From: Nitrosarchaeum sp.
Lineage (GTDB): Archaea > Thermoproteota > Nitrososphaeria > Nitrososphaerales > Nitrosopumilaceae
Length of the DNA stretch: 64,000 nucleotides
Assembly: GCA_965223865.1 (NCBI GenBank)
Contig: OZ245020.1
Span: 1,632,001 to 1,696,000 of the forward strand
Direction of reading: 5' to 3'
Part shown: piece by piece, positions 4,000 through 58,121 of the stretch
Layout of the letters: every line of letters starts with the position of its first letter
Numbering within the stretch: the first letter of the stretch is position 1
The notes under the pieces: model-generated
The model's database searches: none
Told to the model about the DNA's origin: nothing
What the model saw: the letters and a program-made list of their open reading frames with translations, nothing else
Made by a program: the position numbers and the translations under genes

Positions 4000-4401
4000 A
4001 TGTCAGAAAAGATTTCAAAAACTCCTGAAGAATGGAAATCAGAGCTGACTCCAGAGCAGTATGAGATATGTATCAATAAAGGAACAGAGCCGCCATTTAG
4101 TGGGAAATATTGTTACATCAAAGAAAAAGGAATCTACAAGTGTGTTTGTTGTGATGAACCATTATTCAAATCAGATACAAAATTTGATTCAGGCTCAGGA
4201 TGGCCAAGTTTTTGGGAGCCAATTTCAGATGAAAAAATAGAATATCTATCAGACACATCATATGGAATGGCTCGAACAGAGGTAAATTGTATGAAATGTG
4301 GTGCTCATTTAGGACATGTATTTGATGATGGGCCAAAACCCACCAATCTCAGATATTGCATAAACTCTATTTCATTAGATCTGAGTAAAAGTGAGGAATA
4401 A
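4000..4401 (+). CDS. msrB: Peptide-methionine (R)-S-oxide reductase
   Basis: [35 protein letters not shown] and two CxxC motifs. Confidence 0.97.
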
Positions 4402-49924: not shown

Positions 49925-50860
49925 ATGACAATTAACAGAATAGTCTCTTTTTTGCCTAGCGCCACAGAATTACTGTACGAGCTAGAAGAACAAGACAAAA
50001 TTTATGGTGTCACACATGAGTGTCATTACCCAACAGATGCAAAATCAAAACCTCAAGTCATTTCTTCAGTTATTGATTCTGAAAATTTATCCAGTAAAGA
50101 AATTGATCAAAAAACATGTGAGCTGTTAAACCAAGGAAAAGACATTTTTGTTTTAGATGAAGAAAATCTCAAAAAAGCAGATCCGGATCTAATAATCTCT
50201 CAAAAGACATGCGAAGTTTGTGCTGCATATACAAATCAGGTTAACAAAGCAGTTCAAATTTTACAAAAAAGACCATTACTTTATTCAATGGACCCACACA
50301 ATCTACAAGAAATACTATCCTCTGTAAATGAGCTAGGAAAGATATTGCAAAAAGAAGACAAGGCAAGAGAGATTGTAGAATCTTTGGAAAAAAGAATAAA
50401 GAGAGTCTCAGAAACCAAGAGAGATGTCAAACCCAAAATATTGGCAATAGAATAGATAGAGCCGTTTTTTACTGCAGGTCATTGGATTCCTGAAATTATA
50501 GAGTTAGCTGGGGGTCAAAATATGATTAGCAAAATAGGTGAACATTCTAGAAGATTAAACATGCAAGAAATTATAGAATCAGATCCAGACATCATATTAT
50601 TGATGCCATGTGGTTTTGATACGCAAAGAACCATATCTGAATATAATATTTTAAAAAACAACCAGGAATGGAATTCCTTAAGAGCAGTAAAAGACGGAAA
50701 TGTTTTTGCAGTTGATGCAAATTCTTTTTTTAGTAAGCCTAGCATTAGGACAGTTACTGGCTTGGAGATAATAACAAAAATAATTCATCCAGAAAACATA
50801 GAACTAAAAGTTCCCGAGGAGTCATTTTTACAGATTAGGACAAAATCATTGTCTGAGTAG
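49925..50860 (+). pseudogene. Cobalamin/Fe-chelate ABC substrate-binding protein (BtuF-like) interrupted by an in-frame TAG
   Basis: RIVSFLPSATE, GVTHECHYP, then LAIE-TAG(50453-50455)-IEPFFTAGHW continuing in frame to MPCGF and FFSKPSIR. Confidence 0.85.
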
Positions 50861-51112
50861 ATAAATTTTAAACAAATCTTTGGTTCAAATTTGAATGGGG
50901 TACAACATGTAGGGGAATATAGATAGAGACATACATTTTACACTAAATTTTGTGCCTAAAACAATCAGAAATTGCAACAGGTTTTACTGATTTTTTGGAT
51001 GGAAGATTTTGCACTAAGATTTATTATTGAATTTTTTAGATCTGATGATTGGTTAAAATCCACAGGTACTTGATAATACTTTAGAGATAAATTTCGGTTC
51101 AAGTAGATTTGA

Positions 51113-51619
51113 TTATTTTAAAACTTTGTAGTATAAATCGACTAATTGATCATACTTTACAGTTTTAACAAATTCAAGTTTTGTCTCGTTTTCTATGTTC
51201 TTGAAGAGAGGTTTTCCTTTGCCTAAAATAATTGGAATGACAGATATTATTATCTCATCTATAGCTCCTTGATTAAGAAAAGATGCAATAATTTGTGCTC
51301 CACCAACCAACCAAATGTTTTCTCCTGCATCTGGAAAACCATCTTTTACAAATTTTTCAACATCCAATAAAAATTCAATATTTTCATCTTTATTTTGAGT
51401 AGAACTAGTAAAAACAAATGATTTTTTGTCTTTGTATGGATATTCTCCAAAAGTTAGTACTTGATCATAGGTGGTTTTACCCATAATCACAGTATCTATT
51501 GAGTCATAAAATGCACCATATCCAGATTCAGTAGCGTTTGGTAACCAATCAATTCCATCATTTTCCCTCGCTATGTATCCATCCAAGCTTGATGCGATAT
51601 ACACTAGAACTGTTGTCAC
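51113..51619 (-). CDS. Dihydrofolate reductase / RibD C-terminal family protein
   Basis: YIASSLDGYIA, DWL, IMGKTTY, IWLVGG, IDEIIISVIPIILGKGKPLF. Confidence 0.92.
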   Translation of the reverse strand: MTTVLVYIASSLDGYIARENDGIDWLPNATESGYGAFYDSIDTVIMGKTTYDQVLTFGEYPYKDKKSFVFTSSTQNKDENIEFLLDVEKFVKDGFPDAGENIWLVGGAQIIASFLNQGAIDEIIISVIPIILGKGKPLFKNIENETKLEFVKTVKYDQLVDLYYKVLK

Positions 51620-51723
51620 AAGAGTTGTAATTGTTTCAGAGTTATAATGTTATATTCAACTCAAGATTTTGTACTAAATTTCAATAGGAAAATTAAATCA
51701 TTCTTTATTCTAAAAACTAAAAA

Positions 51724-52371
51724 TTAATTCCAATCATGATCCCACACTTCATCTGGAAAAGATCTATTGCTAATATCAATATCCATATCAATATCCAAAC
51801 TATATTCAATCAAGTCTGGAAATTTACAGTCTGTATCTTTGGGAATAACAATTGACTCATGATGGAACATGTAGTATTGAACACCCTCTTTTTCTGTGAT
51901 TCCTTGGTATTTTAGAACCCCTAACACTTTTGATGAATCAGATTCATAAAAAGACAGATTAGAAAATCTGTCCGACAAATGTATCAAACCACAGTTAACT
52001 ACAAAAGTTTGATTTTTTTCTATTGGTGTAACATACGTAAGATTATCTTGTATTTTTGATTCCATGTTCAGTTTTCCATCTGTTACAAAATAATTAGAAT
52101 TGAAGGTGACCTGAATTGTCCCATCATTGTTTTGCATGATGTGAGTCATTGACGCATAGTATTTTCCATCTCTATCCACTCGATCATAATGAGTGTCCCC
52201 TCCATTTCTAAATCCATCATTTTCTATCATGTATTCAGCATCTTTTAGTACATTTTTGATACTGCGAACATCTAGTGAATCAGTTGAATCATTATCTGAA
52301 TAAATTAAGAAAAATATTCCAGATACTAAACTTCCAATGAGTACAATCAACCCTATTGCAAACTTGTCCAA
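51724..52371 (-). CDS. Membrane-anchored/secreted hypothetical protein
   Basis: N-terminal TM helix (FAIGLIVLIGSLVSGIFFLIY), soluble domain with two Cys. Confidence 0.75.
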   Translation of the reverse strand: MDKFAIGLIVLIGSLVSGIFFLIYSDNDSTDSLDVRSIKNVLKDAEYMIENDGFRNGGDTHYDRVDRDGKYYASMTHIMQNNDGTIQVTFNSNYFVTDGKLNMESKIQDNLTYVTPIEKNQTFVVNCGLIHLSDRFSNLSFYESDSSKVLGVLKYQGITEKEGVQYYMFHHESIVIPKDTDCKFPDLIEYSLDIDMDIDISNRSFPDEVWDHDWN

Positions 52372-52458
52372 ATCTTATCTTCAAAATTTTAAGTGAAGTT
52401 AAATGTGAATCTATAACGGTGCAAATGAGGCTCAAATTTTGCATCAAATCCTAAATTG

Positions 52459-52480
52459 AAGACCAACTAGAGTTGGTCTT
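52459..52480. repeat. Perfect 10-bp inverted repeat
   Basis: AAGACCAACT-AG-AGTTGGTCTT. Confidence 0.8.
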
Positions 52481-52496
52481 ATCAATGAGACAACTA

Positions 52497-52535
52497 CACT
52501 AGGAATCAGCTACAATCTTGGGTATGAAAATGGAC
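52497..52535 (+). repeat. 39-nt intergenic element, copy 1
   Basis: CACTAGGAATCAGCTACAATCTTGGGTATGAAAATGGAC; 33/39 positions match 55174-55211. Confidence 0.8.
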
Positions 52536-52543
52536 GCAATTAA

Positions 52544-52642
52544 TCAAAACAAAATACTTTGATAGAATGCAATAGTGAATGTTGTAATCGCCACACTAAA
52601 CACAAAAATTCCATATGCAGAATATTTGATTATTTTATTCAC
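52544..52642 (-). CDS. Candidate 32-aa single-TM microprotein (not in ORF track)
   Basis: GTG start, MNKIIKYSAYGIFVFSVAITTFTIAFYQSILF; TATA-like CTTAAATA ~25 nt upstream. Confidence 0.5.
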   Translation of the reverse strand: MNKIIKYSAYGIFVFSVAITTFTIAFYQSILF

Positions 52643-52777
52643 AGTATTAATTCACATTCAGAATATTTAAGGGCAATTTTGTAGAGACTAATCTTTTTTA
52701 GAGAATATGTTGGTTCACTGTAAAAATTGAGAGATTATCAATTTAAAAAATAATAATATCAATTACAATAAAAAATT

Positions 52778-53095
52778 GTGACAATATATTCAGTTAAAGC
52801 TAGATACATTGAAGAAAAGATGAAGGAATTTTATCAGAAACTAACTGATGGTACAATTCAGAACCAGAAACCTGATGGGCAGGAGATAATTAATTCAATG
52901 AAACGTGCTAAAATAACTGAACATGATGTAATTCAATGGTCTGAGATGTGTTTTTGTTCCCCTCCATTAAAACATGAACGTGAAACTGTGTACAATCAAT
53001 TTCTAACAGACATGGAAATTACAGTCATTGATGATTATGTAGAGTATGAGGGAGAATTGTTTATGGATTTTTTAGCAAAACAAAGTAAAGAATAA
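52778..53095 (+). CDS. Hypothetical protein
   Basis: 105 aa; LTDGTIQNQKPDG and WSEMCFCSPPLKHER look like conserved-type motifs. Confidence 0.75.
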   Translation: MTIYSVKARYIEEKMKEFYQKLTDGTIQNQKPDGQEIINSMKRAKITEHDVIQWSEMCFCSPPLKHERETVYNQFLTDMEITVIDDYVEYEGELFMDFLAKQSKE

Positions 53096-53101
53096 TTCAA
53101 A

Positions 53102-53337
53102 TCATGGGAATCTGTTCTTTATCCACTTACATGAATTTTCGTCAATGGTATGAGTACCATTATCATAGATATACAATGACAAAGAACCACTTCGCTCAAA
53201 GCCCATTGCACAGTTGTACAAAATTATTCCCAAATGATCTGCTGTCTGTGCAACGTAAAAGGAATAATTATTGTGATTAGAACAATTGTAGTTATCAGAA
53301 CTATCGCAATCAAAATAACAAAATTTCTAGTTTTCAT
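53102..53337 (-). pseudogene. Frameshifted MKTR-leader secreted protein
   Basis: MKTRNFVILIAIVLITTIVLITIIIPFTLHRQQIIWE* (stop 53224-53226). Another frame continues YNCAMGFERSGSLSLYIYDNGTHTIDENSCKWIKNRFP* to 53102. Confidence 0.6.
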
Positions 53338-53975
53338 TTTCTTCTCCAGTATAATGTCAAACCAATTCCTGAACCTGCATCTATTACTATTGCACTAATT
53401 ATTATCGGCAAAGTAAAGCTATACTCGTTAAAAATTCCAATACCTGAACCAAAACCCATGCTTTCTTCTGCTAGAAACCTTTTCTCAGATGCTAGTCTCA
53501 ATGATTCGTCATCAGAATACGGATCATGTGGAACAATGATTTTTTCTTCTTGAGGATCTTCATCTAGTAATGTTTGACTTCCAATTACTCTGGTAGAACA
53601 CATGTTAGTTTGACCTACAGAATTTTGTTCAGTAATGCCCCAGCCAAACACTTGATAGGTATTTCCTTTACTATAATTAGGATCACAAGAATTAAGCATT
53701 CTAGTTTCATTTTCACTAAAGTAGAGATTTACATTTGTCATAACAAAATATCCTTCTTTCAAATCTCCTTTCTGAACAGAATGTATCATAAAATGCACTT
53801 TTTGAAAATCTGAACCATCTTCTGTTTTGATCACGGTTCCTTGAAATGCCGTATCTGCATTTGCTAATGTCTCAAAGTAATCAGGATTTGCAGCACAAGA
53901 ACATGCAAAAGATTCTTGATATACTAAAGTCGATATAAGTAAAACAGATACAAATATGAATAATCTAGTTTTCAT
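53334..53975 (-). CDS. Secreted surface protein with CSC N-terminus (TIMP/NTR-like) and C-terminal membrane anchor
   Basis: MKTR signal peptide ending ESFA, mature CSCA...ADTAFQGTV...SC...YQVF...MCS; hydrophobic tail ending WRRK. Confidence 0.75.
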   Translation of the reverse strand: MKTRLFIFVSVLLISTLVYQESFACSCAANPDYFETLANADTAFQGTVIKTEDGSDFQKVHFMIHSVQKGDLKEGYFVMTNVNLYFSENETRMLNSCDPNYSKGNTYQVFGWGITEQNSVGQTNMCSTRVIGSQTLLDEDPQEEKIIVPHDPYSDDESLRLASEKRFLAEESMGFGSGIGIFNEYSFTLPIIISAIVIDAGSGIGLTLYWRRK

Positions 53976-54925
53976 TTTCTCTTCTCAATTAATTCTAATA
54001 ATTCCTCAGGCAGACTGTCATACTGTTTTTCATATTGTTTAATCATGTCTTGGGTACTTTGATCATCAAAGTAACCATGAACCATTTTCCCAACAATATT
54101 TCCCAAGTCTCCTTGTTTGTTCATCTCTGAGAAAAACTTCCATTGGGATTCTGGATCGACAATACCAGTCATTGATTCTCTTTCTAACTGTCTGCGTTTT
54201 TCATTCAATGTTTGAGAGTAATCATAAATAGATTGACGCCATGGATCTAGTACTATCTTGCAAAATTCCCCATTGGAATAGTTGGATATAATATCGTCAT
54301 AGTTGTGTGTTGCAAATCTATAGTCGGTATCACCATCAAAACAATGTAAAAATAATGATTCTTTGTCTGTTATTTCATGGGTGCATGAACTTAGATGAAA
54401 GTATGTTGATGCACTCTGATTTTTACTATTTATTGCAAACAATCCATAATGGATATTGGATTGATGACTTCTTTCATCTTGAATGGATAATTCAAGATTG
54501 TATGGAGCATATTTTTTTGTAAATATTTTATAATTTTCAGTCTGTGAGAGTTTTTTCATGTGCAGAGGGATCATCCTCTCAAAATCACATACGGATGATG
54601 GTTCTAAATCAAATCGTTCTGCCCAATGAGTGCTATTTTGGAATGGATAGTACCCTTCAAGTAACTTTACATGTTCAATTTCTAATCCCAGATAATCTGA
54701 AGAAATTTCTTTTAATTTTTCTTGCATTTGTTTTTTTGATTCATCAAATTTTTGTTCATTTCCTATCAATTGGTATTTTTTTGATAATTCATTAATTTGA
54801 ACTAGTTCGTTAGAATGCTTTTCAAATGATATTGATTTTGGAGAATCAGGATTTTGATAAATAAGAAATAAAGTAGAAGATACAAGGAACGTCATTATGA
54901 CAATTATTTTAAATTCAATTTTCAT
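53972..54925 (-). CDS. Membrane-anchored/secreted hypothetical protein
   Basis: Likely start MKIEFKIIVIMTFLVSSTLFLIY at 54925; four Cys; ends EKRK overlapping the next ATG. Confidence 0.75.
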   Translation of the reverse strand: MKIEFKIIVIMTFLVSSTLFLIYQNPDSPKSISFEKHSNELVQINELSKKYQLIGNEQKFDESKKQMQEKLKEISSDYLGLEIEHVKLLEGYYPFQNSTHWAERFDLEPSSVCDFERMIPLHMKKLSQTENYKIFTKKYAPYNLELSIQDERSHQSNIHYGLFAINSKNQSASTYFHLSSCTHEITDKESLFLHCFDGDTDYRFATHNYDDIISNYSNGEFCKIVLDPWRQSIYDYSQTLNEKRRQLERESMTGIVDPESQWKFFSEMNKQGDLGNIVGKMVHGYFDDQSTQDMIKQYEKQYDSLPEELLELIEKRK

Positions 54926-55082
54926 TTCCATGTTTTCCATAACAATCATCTGGCGACGCAACCTTTGTTACAATCTCCAAGTCATATTGAGGAATATCAA
55001 TAATTATTGAATCAACATATGCATAAGCAACTCCAGTAGAGAAAACTGAAGAAAAAAGTACAAGGAGCAGAGGAATTTTCAA
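54915..55082 (-). CDS. 55-aa signal-peptide ORF, probably truncated (not in ORF track)
   Basis: TTG start, MKIPLLLVLFSSVFSTGVAYA-YVDSIIIDIPQYDLEIVTKVASPDDCYGKHGNEN*; AxA cleavage motif; TTTATGAA TATA-like box upstream. Confidence 0.55.
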   Translation of the reverse strand: MKIPLLLVLFSSVFSTGVAYAYVDSIIIDIPQYDLEIVTKVASPDDCYGKHGNEN

Positions 55083-55173
55083 ACAATGTGACTCAATTTA
55101 GGATATTCATAAAGTGTTCTGATGTTTGTTCTGTTAAAAAGACGGTTAGTTCAAGACTCTACAAGTTAAACCC

Positions 55174-55211
55174 CACTAGGAATCAACTACAATTCGAGTA
55201 TCAAAAGGGAC
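55174..55211 (+). repeat. 38-nt intergenic element, copy 2
   Basis: CACTAGGAATCAACTACAATTCGAGTATCAAAAGGGAC, same orientation as 52497-52535. Confidence 0.8.
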
Positions 55212-55291
55212 AGAAATAAGATAAAAATCAATTTTGATAAAAATAAGAATATGTTAAAAGAGTAAAAGATATAATTTTGTCAATGGTTTTG

Positions 55292-55748
55292 ATGAAAACT
55301 TTCCTTATCGGACTGTCTGTTTGTTTGCCTATTGCAGTAACATCAGAAGTTTTTGCAGAGACCATCATTCCATATAGAGGAATATTTGAGTGTGGGAGAT
55401 TCCAGATATTTTACTGATATTGGAAGGTTTTTAGTTTTTGAGGATATTGTGACTGGTAATGGAGAAGTAATTTGGGTTCCAGATTAAGGTGATGGCACAG
55501 GAGGTTATGAAATTAGTCGTTATACAATTTCTGACGATATTGGAAACAGTATTTCTTTTGAAGCTAAAGAAATATTTTATCAGGAATATGCTAATCATAA
55601 ATTTACCGTTGGACAATATGAGTGGAAAATTCTTAATGGTACAGGCAAGTTTGTAGGAGCTACCGGTCAAGGAATGGATCGTGTATGGTACAAATTATCT
55701 GATATGTCATATAGAGGAATTTCGTCAGGAAGTATTATTCTTGAATAA
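55292..55748 (+). pseudogene. Decayed secreted beta-barrel protein (allene-oxide-cyclase/dirigent-like motif)
   Basis: MKTFLIGLSVCLPIAVTSEVFA signal peptide, frameshift near 55400, in-frame TAA near 55485, then ...WKILNGTGKFVGATGQG...GSIILE*. Confidence 0.65.
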
Positions 55749-56018
55749 TTCTCTTAGCAATCCAAGATTTACTTAAAGACGATCCGAATCTTTAAATTCA
55801 AACTTTTTCTGGGAAATAATTTTTGCTCGATCCGCTTTAGGGACTTACCATATTATTCATATAATGAAATCTTGTCAATACTTTATTGTAGATTTTAGTT
55901 TTCTTGTTTTGTTGCAAATTCTTTTTGAGATACCAATGTATACTTATTAATTCCCAATCTCTTTCTTTCCCCCTAATAATCATGTTCATGATTTTTCTTG
56001 ATTTCGTCTAAGGTTCAC

Positions 56019-56456
56019 TTACTCTATTCCCTTGGTAATGAGGACAGGGCATTTTGCATGTCCTATTACATTACTTGCAACACTTCCCAAGACAATCTTT
56101 CTAAAACCTGTTCTGCCATGAGACCCCATAACTATCAAATCAACATTGTTGTTGTCTGCATAAGATACAATACCATCAGCCGATGATGGATTGTGGATTA
56201 CTTTTATTGACAATTGAATATTTTTGGACTTTGCCTTTTCTTCTAGATTTTTAAGCATTGCAGTAGCATCTTCAATCTGTTCATCTTGCATTTCTCCAAG
56301 TCGTTCAATGGAAACTCCAGAAGAATCTCCTAATTTTGCCTGCAAGACAGTTAACGCTGTCAGTTTTGAATCGAATTTCGAGGTTATCTCCAATGCCTTT
56401 TCAAATGCCTTTTCTGAGTATTTAGAACCATCAAACGGGACTAGAATATTTTTCAA
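56019..56456 (-). CDS. Universal stress protein (UspA family)
   Basis: ILVPFDGSKYS, DLIVMGSHGRTG, LGSVA, AKCPVLI. Confidence 0.95.
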   Translation of the reverse strand: MKNILVPFDGSKYSEKAFEKALEITSKFDSKLTALTVLQAKLGDSSGVSIERLGEMQDEQIEDATAMLKNLEEKAKSKNIQLSIKVIHNPSSADGIVSYADNNNVDLIVMGSHGRTGFRKIVLGSVASNVIGHAKCPVLITKGIE

Positions 56457-56726
56457 TACGTGGTTGTTTATTTTTTTGAATTTATATCCTTTGAATAATT
56501 TTTTCCTACCTATCTGATTTTTTTTGTTAAAATTTCACCATGATTTTTTTAAAATACTAATACTTTACTCATGAGAGACCAAATTCTACATTTTTTTAAA
56601 ATTATCAAATAGATTTTTTTATTTTGATGAGACATGGCCTGTCATTGCCGAGGATTTTAGAATTAAAATCATTATACAACTACAATGTTCAGGTCTAGTT
56701 GCTCTAGATTTTGGGAATAAGAGAGT

Positions 56727-57191
56727 TTATGCAGATTCTGAGATGTCATCTTGTAAGTTGACTACCTTGAATATTTTGACAACGTAATCCCCTTCAAAAA
56801 AGTTTGTTACTTCTCCAGTGTCCATATTCACATCTCTTACCCGGAACTTGTATTCGTAAGAACCGTTATCTTCCACATCAACTTGGGCAACATGTATTGG
56901 GTCATCCCCATTTTCTTCATTGAAGAATTGTATAATGACAGGATAGTCTTGTGCATGATTATCTATTTTGCCTTCAACATACGCCCAAGGCAGAGTATTG
57001 TCCTTTGGAATGTTTAGCAGCATGGTTGTCTTTTCAATACTAGTATCATCACTGTGTGGAATAACTGTGGTTTCTGCAGTTTGAGATTGTGGTTCTGCAA
57101 GAGAGTTTGGCATTACTGCGACTGTAAAGAGCACTCCAACTGAAAACAATCCCATAATTAGAACTGTGTTTCTTGAAATTCCACTTTTCAT
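56727..57191 (-). CDS. Secreted hypothetical protein (Ig-like beta domain)
   Basis: Signal peptide, then YVEGKI, PVIIQF, HVAQVDV...GSYEYKFRV, EGDYVVKIFK. Confidence 0.75.
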   Translation of the reverse strand: MKSGISRNTVLIMGLFSVGVLFTVAVMPNSLAEPQSQTAETTVIPHSDDTSIEKTTMLLNIPKDNTLPWAYVEGKIDNHAQDYPVIIQFFNEENGDDPIHVAQVDVEDNGSYEYKFRVRDVNMDTGEVTNFFEGDYVVKIFKVVNLQDDISESA

Positions 57192-57517
57192 GAGGTTTTT
57201 CCTTTTTTGTGTTTTAAAAGAATTGCTCCAAATTTACACCTAATAGAAGGATAATTTCCAGAAACTAAGAGAGCATTCCAAGTGTGTTCATATAAGATAT
57301 TAAAAGAATCGTTTGTCCCAATAAAGCCACCGGGGCGCTCATCAAGTTTTATCGAACCTAGATTATTTTGAATATCTAAAATAGTATTTGGGATATTTGA
57401 CATGTAATTTCCAAGCAGAATAAATGGAGCAAATACTAGACCTGTTCCTGCTGCGCCAATCATCTTCAAAAAATCGCGTCTAGAGAGTTCATTATTTCTC
57501 TCTTGTTTTTTAGTCTA
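57188..57517 (-). pseudogene. Remnant of a twin-arginine (Tat) exported protein
   Basis: In-frame upstream of the tracked ORF reads TAG-TKKQERNNELSRRDFLKMIGAAGTGLVFAPF. This is a canonical SRRxFLK with no start codon ahead of it, and the product is short. Confidence 0.6.
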
Positions 57518-57522
57518 CAGAG

Positions 57523-57540
57523 AACAGCTTTTATGCTGTT
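57523..57540. promoter_or_regulatory. Palindromic operator-like site upstream of the Tat remnant
   Basis: AACAGC-TTTTAT-GCTGTT, between a TATA-like tract (~57552) and the presumed start. Confidence 0.4.
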
Positions 57541-57635
57541 CCGACATGGTCTATAATATGTATTTCATATCTAAACTATGAGAAACAATTTTTTGAATTG
57601 ATGTTATGATTGGAAAAATTCATTAATCAATAGTT

Positions 57636-58121
57636 TTAGGATTGTGGGTTTATTTTGCATTCTACTTTGAGTGATTTAACAGTTGTATAGTACGTAAGCA
57701 CAAGTACTCCAATTGCAGCTATTCTTATTGGAATCTCAAAATTTGTCAGAAAAGAGGATGCTGTAGCTCCTACAGTTCCAAAAGTAGAGATTACTGCAAA
57801 TCCAATAGGACCACAGCTACATGCACCTGCAGCAGCACCAATTATTGAGCCAAATACTCCTCCACCCATTTTCTTTTTTGAGCTTTTCAGAATATTGATT
57901 CGATAGACATTCATTGGAATTACCAATGCAGACAATCCAGACAAAATAACAATTAATGAAAATCCAATTTCTGTTCCCTTTGGAATATGACTGACTACAT
58001 AGGGTTCAAGAAAAACATACTCAGAGATTATCAACAACCCCATAAGCATGGGTAAAAAAATTGCAGTTGCCAGTGCAATGTATCGGTGATTGGAAAATAC
58101 GAGTTTGAGTGTGTTTGTCAT
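57636..58121 (-). CDS. Membrane protein with CxC motif, coupled to DsbA-like gene
   Basis: About four hydrophobic segments, AAGACSCGP; starts 1 nt after the dsbA stop. Confidence 0.75.
   Translation of the reverse strand: MTNTLKLVFSNHRYIALATAIFLPMLMGLLIISEYVFLEPYVVSHIPKGTEIGFSLIVILSGLSALVIPMNVYRINILKSSKKKMGGGVFGSIIGAAAGACSCGPIGFAVISTFGTVGATASSFLTNFEIPIRIAAIGVLVLTYYTTVKSLKVECKINPQS

Follow-up and report, generated by a model that had tools for sequence, protein, structure and literature searches.

Why should genes whose products have nothing in common be joined, one after another, by nearly the same short sequence? The question is raised by an operon of four open reading frames (ORFs) on the minus strand of a 64,000-nucleotide (nt) stretch of Nitrosarchaeum DNA, here called the window (C1:1632001-1696000 of the source genome, G000, which has 2.01 Mb and 34% G+C; coordinates without a prefix are those of the window). 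The original prediction, made from the letters alone, placed three joints at 54914-54927, 53964-53977 and 53326-53339, and they lie there, on the minus strand; the first reads AAATGAAAATTGAA, and the other two read AAATGAAAACTAGA. The locus proteins are otherwise unrelated, as had been claimed, and BLASTP at E<=1e-3 detects no similarity among them. As described below, the joint belongs to a lineage-specific core, (T)AGAAA-ATG-AAR-ACT-AGR, that marks the internal gene boundaries of patchy, multi-copy gene arrays in the Nitrosopumilaceae, and that is conserved as DNA or RNA beyond the needs of coding.

The junctions of the window locus

Junction 1 (54914-54930, minus strand) is a weaker variant, tggaa-ATG-AAA-ATT-GAA, in which the start of ORF2 is combined with a TGA at +2 and another TGA at +9. 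Junction 2 (53964-53981, minus strand) reads gAGAAA-ATG-AAA-ACT-AGA and junction 3 (53326-53343, minus strand) aAGAAA-ATG-AAA-ACT-AGA; the two have the 16-mer GAAAATGAAAACTAGA in common, and both are ATGA overlaps, the stop of ORF2 lying within the start of ORF3 at junction 2. ORF1 to ORF4 are all on the minus strand and overlap by 11, 4 and 4 nt, so that they are co-directional with no room for a promoter between them, as in translationally coupled gene pairs.

ORF1 (54915-55082; 55 amino acids, aa) has a signal-peptide-like N-terminus and ends in ...GKHGNEN (tails are written up to the stop codon); its TGA lies at +9 of the ORF2 start, which gives the 11-nt overlap and places it in the frame-2 class. 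ORF2 (53972-54925; 317 aa) has an N-terminal membrane anchor, belongs to an orphan family and ends in ...EKRK. ORF3 (53334-53975; 213 aa) consists of a signal peptide (MKTR...SFA, followed by CSC), a putative NTR/TIMP-like beta-barrel, a conserved C-terminal module (PHDPYSDDESLRLASEKRF...GSGIG...), a membrane helix and the tail WRRK. The tails ...GNEN, ...EKRK and ...WRRK are those given in the original prediction, which had also counted four exported-protein ORFs. That count holds in part. The ORF2 start, ATG at 54925 (MKIEF), is sound, the same methionine beginning six of six aligned homologues; ORF1 is open solely from a TTG at 55082, and its start is provisional; and the fourth gene is not intact. 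The broken terminal cassette (53102-53337, minus strand) consists of a 37-aa ORF4 (53224-53337) and a 43-aa ORF (53102-53233) in differing frames. In tblastn searches with two relatives of 139 aa, residues 1-33 match in the frame of ORF4 and residues ~28-75 in that of the 43-aa ORF; nothing beyond residue 75 is left, the copy stopping after ...WIKN. The two ORFs are a frameshifted, C-terminally truncated copy of the 139-aa family rather than an intact gene. The frameshift is near a T-run at ~53250, where the contigs of four DNA runs have no variant.

Within the window, the joints are not statistically significant. AAATGAAAAYT has four matches where 1.40 are expected (seven of 100 shuffles reach four), and the 16-mer with up to two mismatches has two matches where 0.37 are expected (six of 100 shuffles reach two). 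The significance of the joints arises from the whole genome and its relatives, not from the window alone.

Occurrence in the genome and the family

The original prediction proposed counting the joint genome-wide, looking for synonymous constraint in the MKTR codons, and comparing neighbors and breakpoints between strains, and each of these checks was made. The 16-mer occurs five times in G000, always at a gene start encoding MKTR plus a hydrophobic stretch. Solely the two copies in the window are ATGA overlaps; the remaining three follow closely on a stop, two having the in-frame form TAG AAA ATG and one being preceded by a TAG at a distance of 11 nt. In a ranking based on crude calls of 2,305 genes, only one four-residue N-terminus is commoner than MKTR, which is found in 10 genes. 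Among the 117 ATGAAR starts followed by a hydrophobic stretch, nAGAAA directly before ATGAARACY is confined to five clusters, located at C1:204-209 kb, 1027-1037 kb, 1046-1055.5 kb, the window locus and 1973-1977 kb. The clusters are partly paralogous. For example, ORF2 is 60% identical to the product of C1:1031034-1031990, the protein encoded at 51724-52371 of the window resembles that of the gene directly upstream of this ORF2 paralogue, and the C-terminal anchor of ORF3 resembles the anchor of C1:1048701-1049642.

The form GAAAATGAARACTAGR of the 16-mer is present in 13 of 121 genomes sampled within the family and five of 27 genera, and it is clustered (nine copies in G000, seven in G004, six in G121 and five in G108); its reversed control is absent from all 121. 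By 16S rRNA, G004 is 100% identical to G000, G003 and G121 98% and G108 97%. A scan of 185,579 species genomes for the 18-mer TAGAAAATGAAAACTAGA gave 75 stretches. The records of 51 are titled Nitrosopumilus, Nitrosarchaeum, Nitrosotenuis, Nitrosopumilales or Thaumarchaeota, that is, ammonia-oxidizing archaea, as are all four of the stretches with at least two matches. The expected range, Nitrosopumilus, was therefore correct as far as it went and too narrow. The arrays themselves are tightly packed operons of fast-evolving orphan proteins, exported or membrane-anchored, within flexible islands of Nitrosopumilaceae.

A viral origin was considered and rejected: the 16-mer is present in 54 IMG/VR contigs, with one match each and no arrays, which we took as background. 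The tetranucleotide CTAG is not avoided in G000 (observed/expected 1.05).

Several individual sites are worth recording. A junction-like site in G000 (L020 ~4215-4240; C1:207,2xx), GGAATATAAAAACTAGA, has ATA in place of ATG, and its frame runs on as IKTRTQIILLSII; the site marks either a dead cassette or a start at a codon other than ATG. One cassette start, at L007:2273, is GTG (GTGAAAACTAAA). In the G004 array region L007:5360-7465, cytoplasmic genes, recognized by translation only, interrupt the array (a TFIIB-like fragment, a zinc-finger ORF, a Yip1-like membrane protein and a NAC-like protein), and so the islands are not pure cassette arrays.

Conservation beyond coding

From the cluster loci of eight genomes, all ATGAAR starts followed by a hydrophobic stretch were taken, whatever their upstream context; 81 of the 90 remained after 150-mers at least 90% identical were dropped. 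The control was a set of 67 comparable MK-plus-hydrophobic starts outside the clusters of G000. Counted from the ATG, the cluster starts have an information content of 0.5-1.1 bit at -5..-1 (AGAAA) and 0.6-1.1 bit at +7..+11 (ACTAG), as opposed to at most 0.13 bit at the same positions of the control starts. This bears out the prediction that the joint is standardized and not simply the product of signal-peptide composition.

The constraint is seen at synonymous positions as well. At +9 the information content is 0.77 bit, whereas third codon positions farther on, beginning at +15, are hardly constrained (0.05-0.38 bit). The threonine of codon 3 is encoded by ACT in 48 of 53 cluster starts, against a bulk usage of 36.6%; ACT serves for a threonine in codon 3 in 58 of 147 cases among the remaining genes of G000, and in six of 20 MKT genes outside the clusters. 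The arginine of codon 4 is AGR in 38 of 38 starts versus 74% expected. The lysine of codon 2 is AAA in 63 of 81 starts, much like the control (52 of 67), and position +6 is variable (A 78%, G 22%). Thus, the MKTR codons are under synonymous constraint at +9, and codon 2 behaves like the control. Furthermore, AGAAA is retained in three contexts: where it encodes R-K, where it encodes E-N and where it is non-coding. A pure codon-bias or signal-peptide explanation is contradicted by these data, and we reject it; the junction element is conserved as a nucleic acid.

The conservation follows the position of a gene in its array. In 57 of the 81 starts, a co-directional upstream ORF ends within -12..+11, and these starts match 3.9-4.7 of the five motif positions upstream of the ATG and 4.0-4.6 of the five downstream. 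The 12 starts without an upstream ORF are at the control level, with matches of 1.9 and 2.1 compared with 1.7 and 1.6 in the control. The motif is tied to internal array junctions, not to signal peptides in general.

When the 25 starts equal to the search pattern were removed, the remaining 56 kept the motif, and ACT was used in 23 of 28. A replicate set of 51 ammonia-oxidizer loci from the 18-mer scan, which may overlap the first eight genomes (the overlap is unchecked), gave ACT in 56 of 68 and AGR in 45 of 47 after removal of the 42 starts with the exact 18-mer. The 24 non-archaeal loci from the same scan have no conservation of the motif.

Array first genes have a pattern of their own: they begin with MKY... 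and are without the junction motif. Three of them, in three genomes (L011:1155-1180; L013:14105-14130, minus strand; L009:700-725), have a different upstream sequence in common, TTTCATAYWGT directly before ATGAAGTATTT. This element may be a common 5' end or a promoter-proximal element.

Upstream stops and reading frames

According to the original prediction, the joint offers a start in one frame and stops in both others. This is correct, and the full motif goes further: its commonest form elsewhere has an in-frame TAG at -6, so that stops are present in all three frames. Upstream genes do terminate in the joint in every frame, as had been proposed. The upstream gene ends at -6, in frame and with a 3-nt spacer, in 14 of the 81 starts (13 with TAG), at the TGA of ATGA in 21 and at +9..+11, with an 11-nt overlap, in 12; the others end elsewhere within -12..-3 (10) or farther away (12) or have no upstream ORF (12). 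The same three classes number 23, 16 and nine of 110 in the replicate set. A stop is present at +9..+11 in 53 of the 81 starts versus three of the 67 controls. In G000 outside the clusters, where both ORFs were required to have at least 80 codons, there are 17 stops at +9, 80 ATGA overlaps and 11 stops at -6; the shift of the clusters toward the -6 and +9 classes is few-fold, not absolute.

The tails of the upstream proteins differ with the frame. Proteins of the ATGA class mostly end in [WY]RKRK after a membrane helix, and those of the +9 class in ...ENEN, ...YEN or similar, because the motif is read in the third frame; tails of the -6 class are unrelated. The prediction had also allowed for in-frame fusion of neighboring cassettes, which is not supported: in none of the 81 starts are at least 60 in-frame codons open upstream.

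Mosaic arrays and breakpoints

The gene order of the arrays differs between close strains, and the arrays are mosaics. The clearest case is a site where G004 and G000 are 98.6% identical up to C1:1028381 and 98.5% identical from C1:1031982 on. Between these points lie 3,637 bp in G000, with four genes (130, 511, 250 and 318 aa), a block that G004 does not have at this site. In a three-way alignment, G004 follows the left G000 flank letter for letter as far as ...TAGAAAATGAAAACTA, and from AGAAAATGAAAACTAACC... onward it is identical to the right one, so that the exchange falls within the 15 nt common to the two G000 junctions. In this case, then, a rearrangement of whole cassettes had its crossover in the motif. 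Diverged copies of genes of this block are present in G004 21-31 kb away (81% and 93% identity). Breakpoints between strains had been predicted to fall inside the motif; the four-gene block agrees with this and a second breakpoint between the same two strains, in a C-terminal anchor, does not.

Many pairwise comparisons give homology blocks of a single gene whose ends are 4-37 nt away from the motif ATG. The ORF2 family was found in seven contexts, with six differing upstream neighbors and three differing full-length downstream neighbors, as would be expected if one module has different neighbors in different strains. In one relative, an ORF3-like gene is upstream of ORF2 instead of downstream, and in two metagenome contigs ORF2 is followed by the motif and then by only 5-6 codons. 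(The metagenome scan with the ORF2 alignment gave three loci, of which two were used; the third, with 1,024 bases and a partial gene, was left out.)

The window operon is within a strain-specific segment of ~5.1 kb (50923-56013, no strand assigned) that has no syntenic match in G004, which is of the same genus, or in G003, where ~0.2 kb stands in place of ~50797-57650 of the window. At the left edge of the segment (50872-50952) is a stretch of ~45-70 nt with several copies, 77-84% identical, scattered in G004. No tRNA was found between 48 and 59 kb of the window. Matches to PF00589 (tyrosine recombinase) in G000 are located at C1:1856771, 1627454, 866048/865741 and 860764, so that no tyrosine recombinase is encoded within ~57 kb of any G000 cluster, the nearest being ~57 kb from the window locus; no serine recombinase was found in the genome.

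Contigs of four DNA runs, all from one study, agree on a single arrangement over 50500-57500, with the junctions invariant. The one exception is a joint of low depth in one of the runs, 53346>53964 (depth 8 versus ~122; one side of 23 nt), which connects the two identical 16-mers and skips ORF3. It is too weak to use and may be a cross-mapped paralogue rather than a deletion variant.

The encoded proteins

None of the seven locus proteins belongs to a Pfam or NCBIfam family. Among 20 proteins from the paralogous clusters, the same databases gave two BNR_2 domains (E values of 3e-8 and 1e-5) and one CDC48_N domain (3e-8); the others had weak, sub-threshold matches or none. The ORF2 family is rare, being present in four of 61 relatives, G000 included. 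ORF2 has no usable match in the ESM Atlas, and its AlphaFold model (predicted local distance difference test, pLDDT, 75.8) has no fold match in the PDB, the best E value being 0.14; two sequences whose homology was unconvincing (L011:5493 and L013:12324, with 23% and 20% identity) were excluded from the alignment used for the fold.

ORF3 has 12 relatives in a collection of 5.8 billion clusters. The mature protein is predicted to begin with CSC (Cys-Ser-Cys). Its model is weak (pLDDT 62; 77-88 in the core), and the top Foldseek matches are the C345C domain of C3, TIMP-1/2 and the NTR domains of PCOLCE and meteorin, with E values of 7e-4 to 8e-3 and template modelling (TM) scores of at most 0.55. 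On the basis of the model, ORF3 looks like a membrane-anchored NTR/TIMP-type module, and it may be a protease inhibitor.

The C-terminal module of ORF3 (~65 aa; 53337-53540, minus strand; proteins P0006-P0011) contains PHDPY[ST]DDESLRLASEKKF, GSGIG, a membrane helix and a terminal WRKRK, and is common to proteins with unrelated N-terminal domains. It has the layout of an archaeosortase/exosortase-type C-terminal signal, that is, a signature motif, a membrane helix and a terminal basic cluster; no NCBIfam family, and so no CTERM model, matches ORF3 at E<=1, and a sortase gene was not searched for.

What the junction may do

The reading that we favor, and to which we give about an even chance, is that the joint is a stop-restart junction (termination-reinitiation coupling) that also provides microhomology for the gain and loss of cassettes. 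A ribosome terminating at the joint would restart on the next gene, whatever the frame in which it arrives. Three observations favor this reading: upstream genes end with a 3-nt spacer before the next start or overlap it by 4 or 11 nt; the internal genes are without a constant Shine-Dalgarno sequence; and the motif is absent from the first genes of arrays. These distances are ones at which termination-reinitiation is known to work, or nearly so (Huber et al. 2023, PMC10666635). The motif would also work as a direct repeat of 15-17 nt, because it is repeated at every boundary, and whole cassettes could be deleted, duplicated or exchanged there with starts and stops unbroken. The RK and ENEN tails and the MKTR starts would then be, in part, read-outs of a single joint sequence.

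A number of points weigh against this reading. Translational coupling at the joints, which we consider most likely, is something that we infer from sequence. Huber et al. 2023 report -4 as by far the commonest stop-to-start distance and those outside -8..+6 as at least 10 times rarer (PMC10666635); junctions 2 and 3 (-4) and the TAG-AAA-ATG class (+3) are inside this range, and junction 1 and the whole +9 class (-11) fall outside the range that these authors tie to reinitiation. The excess of 11-nt overlaps in the clusters (12 vs 21 ATGA overlaps) is only about threefold, since the corresponding numbers outside the clusters are 17 vs 80. The fixation of G(-4), C(+8) and T(+9) is not accounted for by the need for an unstructured, A-rich restart site, and no reading explains it. 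Some loci were chosen by the motif itself, a bias that removal of the 25 starts controls yet does not eliminate, and the P values for the conservation (3e-16 and 9e-6) overstate independence because the starts are related paralogues and orthologues. As for the microhomology, only one crossover inside the motif has been demonstrated. The left end of the 93% block of G004 coincides with the ATG that opens the 511-aa gene, but on the right the block stops 65-70 nt inside the gene that follows, in the signal-peptide region; the second G000/G004 breakpoint lies in the anchor coding region (GLVGIV), where it has produced a chimeric 73-aa gene.

The original prediction saw in the joint a dedicated site for recombination: the motif would be kept for the shuffling of surface-protein cassettes, for example to diversify the cell surface against viruses, and the stops in all frames would end any upstream cassette. 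The crossover of the four-gene block inside the 15-nt core speaks for it, as do the homology blocks that end close to the motif ATG, the varied neighbors of the ORF2 family and the strain-specific segment around the locus. The same is true of T(+9), which is kept though mostly unused, 53 of 81 starts holding a stop at +9 and 12 using it. Yet no recombinase of the tyrosine type is near the clusters or of the serine type in the genome, other breakpoints are outside the motif, and the free variation at +6 breaks the identity. Selection for evolvability would be weak in principle, and surface exposure and the link to viruses are conjecture. We regard a dedicated site as unlikely. A related proposal, which we find just as doubtful, is a recombinase-free cassette system in which a 17-nt universal adaptor would combine a start, stops in three frames and a restart signal. 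Genes for exported proteins could then be excised, inserted and re-ordered by short homology and still be terminated and translated, giving combinatorial envelope proteins of fast turnover.

Somewhat less probable again is that the joint is a by-product. All cassettes would descend from one ancestral gene, with the MKTR n-region and the RK tail kept at the protein level, and AT-rich codon bias and ordinary ATGA overlaps would do the rest. The bulk codon usage of the genome fits (AAA for 76% of lysines, AGA for 63% of arginines), many upstream proteins truly end in a membrane helix and WRKRK, Lys codon 2 has no excess over the control, and paralogy among the clusters is real. It does not, however, explain the preference for ACT (48 of 53 where 37% is expected, and only six of 20 in MKT genes elsewhere), the constraint at +9 next to nearly free third positions from +15 on, or the fact that genes at the head of these arrays lack the motif. 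Nor does it explain why AGAAA is kept when non-coding, as in the 14 starts of the TAG AAA ATG class, and when it encodes E-N, or why the same 16-mer is found across genera (97-98% 16S identity) whose proteins can barely be aligned.

Least probable of all is a shared regulatory target, at which a small RNA or an RNA-binding protein over the start codon would switch all cassettes jointly: a fixed short sequence does overlap the starts of many unrelated genes irrespective of the upstream frame, but no partner was found, in an analysis that included no search for complementary small RNAs, 16S rRNA offers at most 8 nt of exact complementarity to the motif, as expected by chance, and coupling fits better with a motif that is tied to internal junctions and not to first genes. 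Pairing with rRNA as such, checked for 16S only (3' end ...GGATCACCTCCT), was rejected on the same 8-nt result.

Comparison with known systems

A full-text literature search, covering titles and abstract openings, found no description of such a junction. Its nearest relatives are the overlapping or closely spaced gene pairs coupled by termination-reinitiation (Huber et al. 2019, PMC6728339; Huber et al. 2023, PMC10666635), which are likewise co-directional and have the same short spacers (3 nt) or overlaps (4 nt); as there, the ATGA overlap is the commonest class in the present arrays (21 of 81). In ordinary coupled pairs the common sequence is limited to the ATGA overlap, whereas here ~16-17 nt are conserved over non-homologous pairs and over genera. 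In addition, three frames are used, and the class with the 11-nt overlap is about as common as that with the 3-nt spacer.

Flexible genomic islands of marine prokaryotes are reported to vary by homologous recombination (PMC4033161). The present locus resembles them in being a strain-specific segment between conserved flanks with orphan exported proteins inside. It differs in its recombination substrate, since besides the island flanks every gene boundary carries an internal repeat of 15 nt. It thus offers a worked example of cassette gain and loss at a 15-nt repeat with every gene left intact, which bears on how islands may vary without mobile-element machinery.

In the vsa/vsp/vlp families of Mycoplasma and the gonococcal pilE/pilS system, variable bodies are placed behind a conserved start or signal-peptide region, and recombination takes place in the conserved part; in these systems one copy is expressed from a single site and the others are silent, or a recombinase encoded nearby carries out site-specific inversion. 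The use of a conserved 5' part in recombination is shared with the arrays described here. By contrast, the latter form one co-directional operon, only -5..+12 is conserved, and inversion of the shufflon or vsa type finds no basis, since no recombinase is nearby and the three motif copies of the window are on the same strand.

In the contact-dependent inhibition (CDI) and Rhs systems, orphan toxin-tip and immunity cassettes are attached at a conserved joint (VENN, PxxxxDPxGL) within one long ORF, and it is the protein tip that is swapped, through homologous recombination. Both kinds of system have short conserved coding joints and arrays that end in truncated remnants; here, the joint is between genes and carries a stop and a start. 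No toxin or immunity family was detected among the locus and cluster proteins with Pfam and NCBIfam.

Integrons are arrays of unrelated, mostly promoterless cassettes with a standard boundary and a strain-variable order. Unrelated cassettes, a standard boundary and an order that differs between strains are found here too, but no IntI-type integrase is near the arrays, and there is nothing like an attC site: comparison of the motif with its reverse complement reveals no self-complementarity (a repeat-finder was not used), and since the genes are 3 nt apart or overlap by 4 or 11 nt, there is no room for one.

Ammonia-oxidizing archaea are among the most abundant microbes of oceans and soils, and the expression and exchange of their flexible genes are poorly understood. 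The joint would be a concrete and testable signal for restarting translation in archaea of this lineage, where the internal array genes have no constant Shine-Dalgarno sequence, and the 16-18-mer is a tag with which otherwise unannotatable arrays of orphan envelope proteins can be found in genomes and metagenomes. If the shuffling of cassettes proves to be its purpose, the joint would represent a new way to build cassette arrays, like those of integrons but built into the signals of translation.

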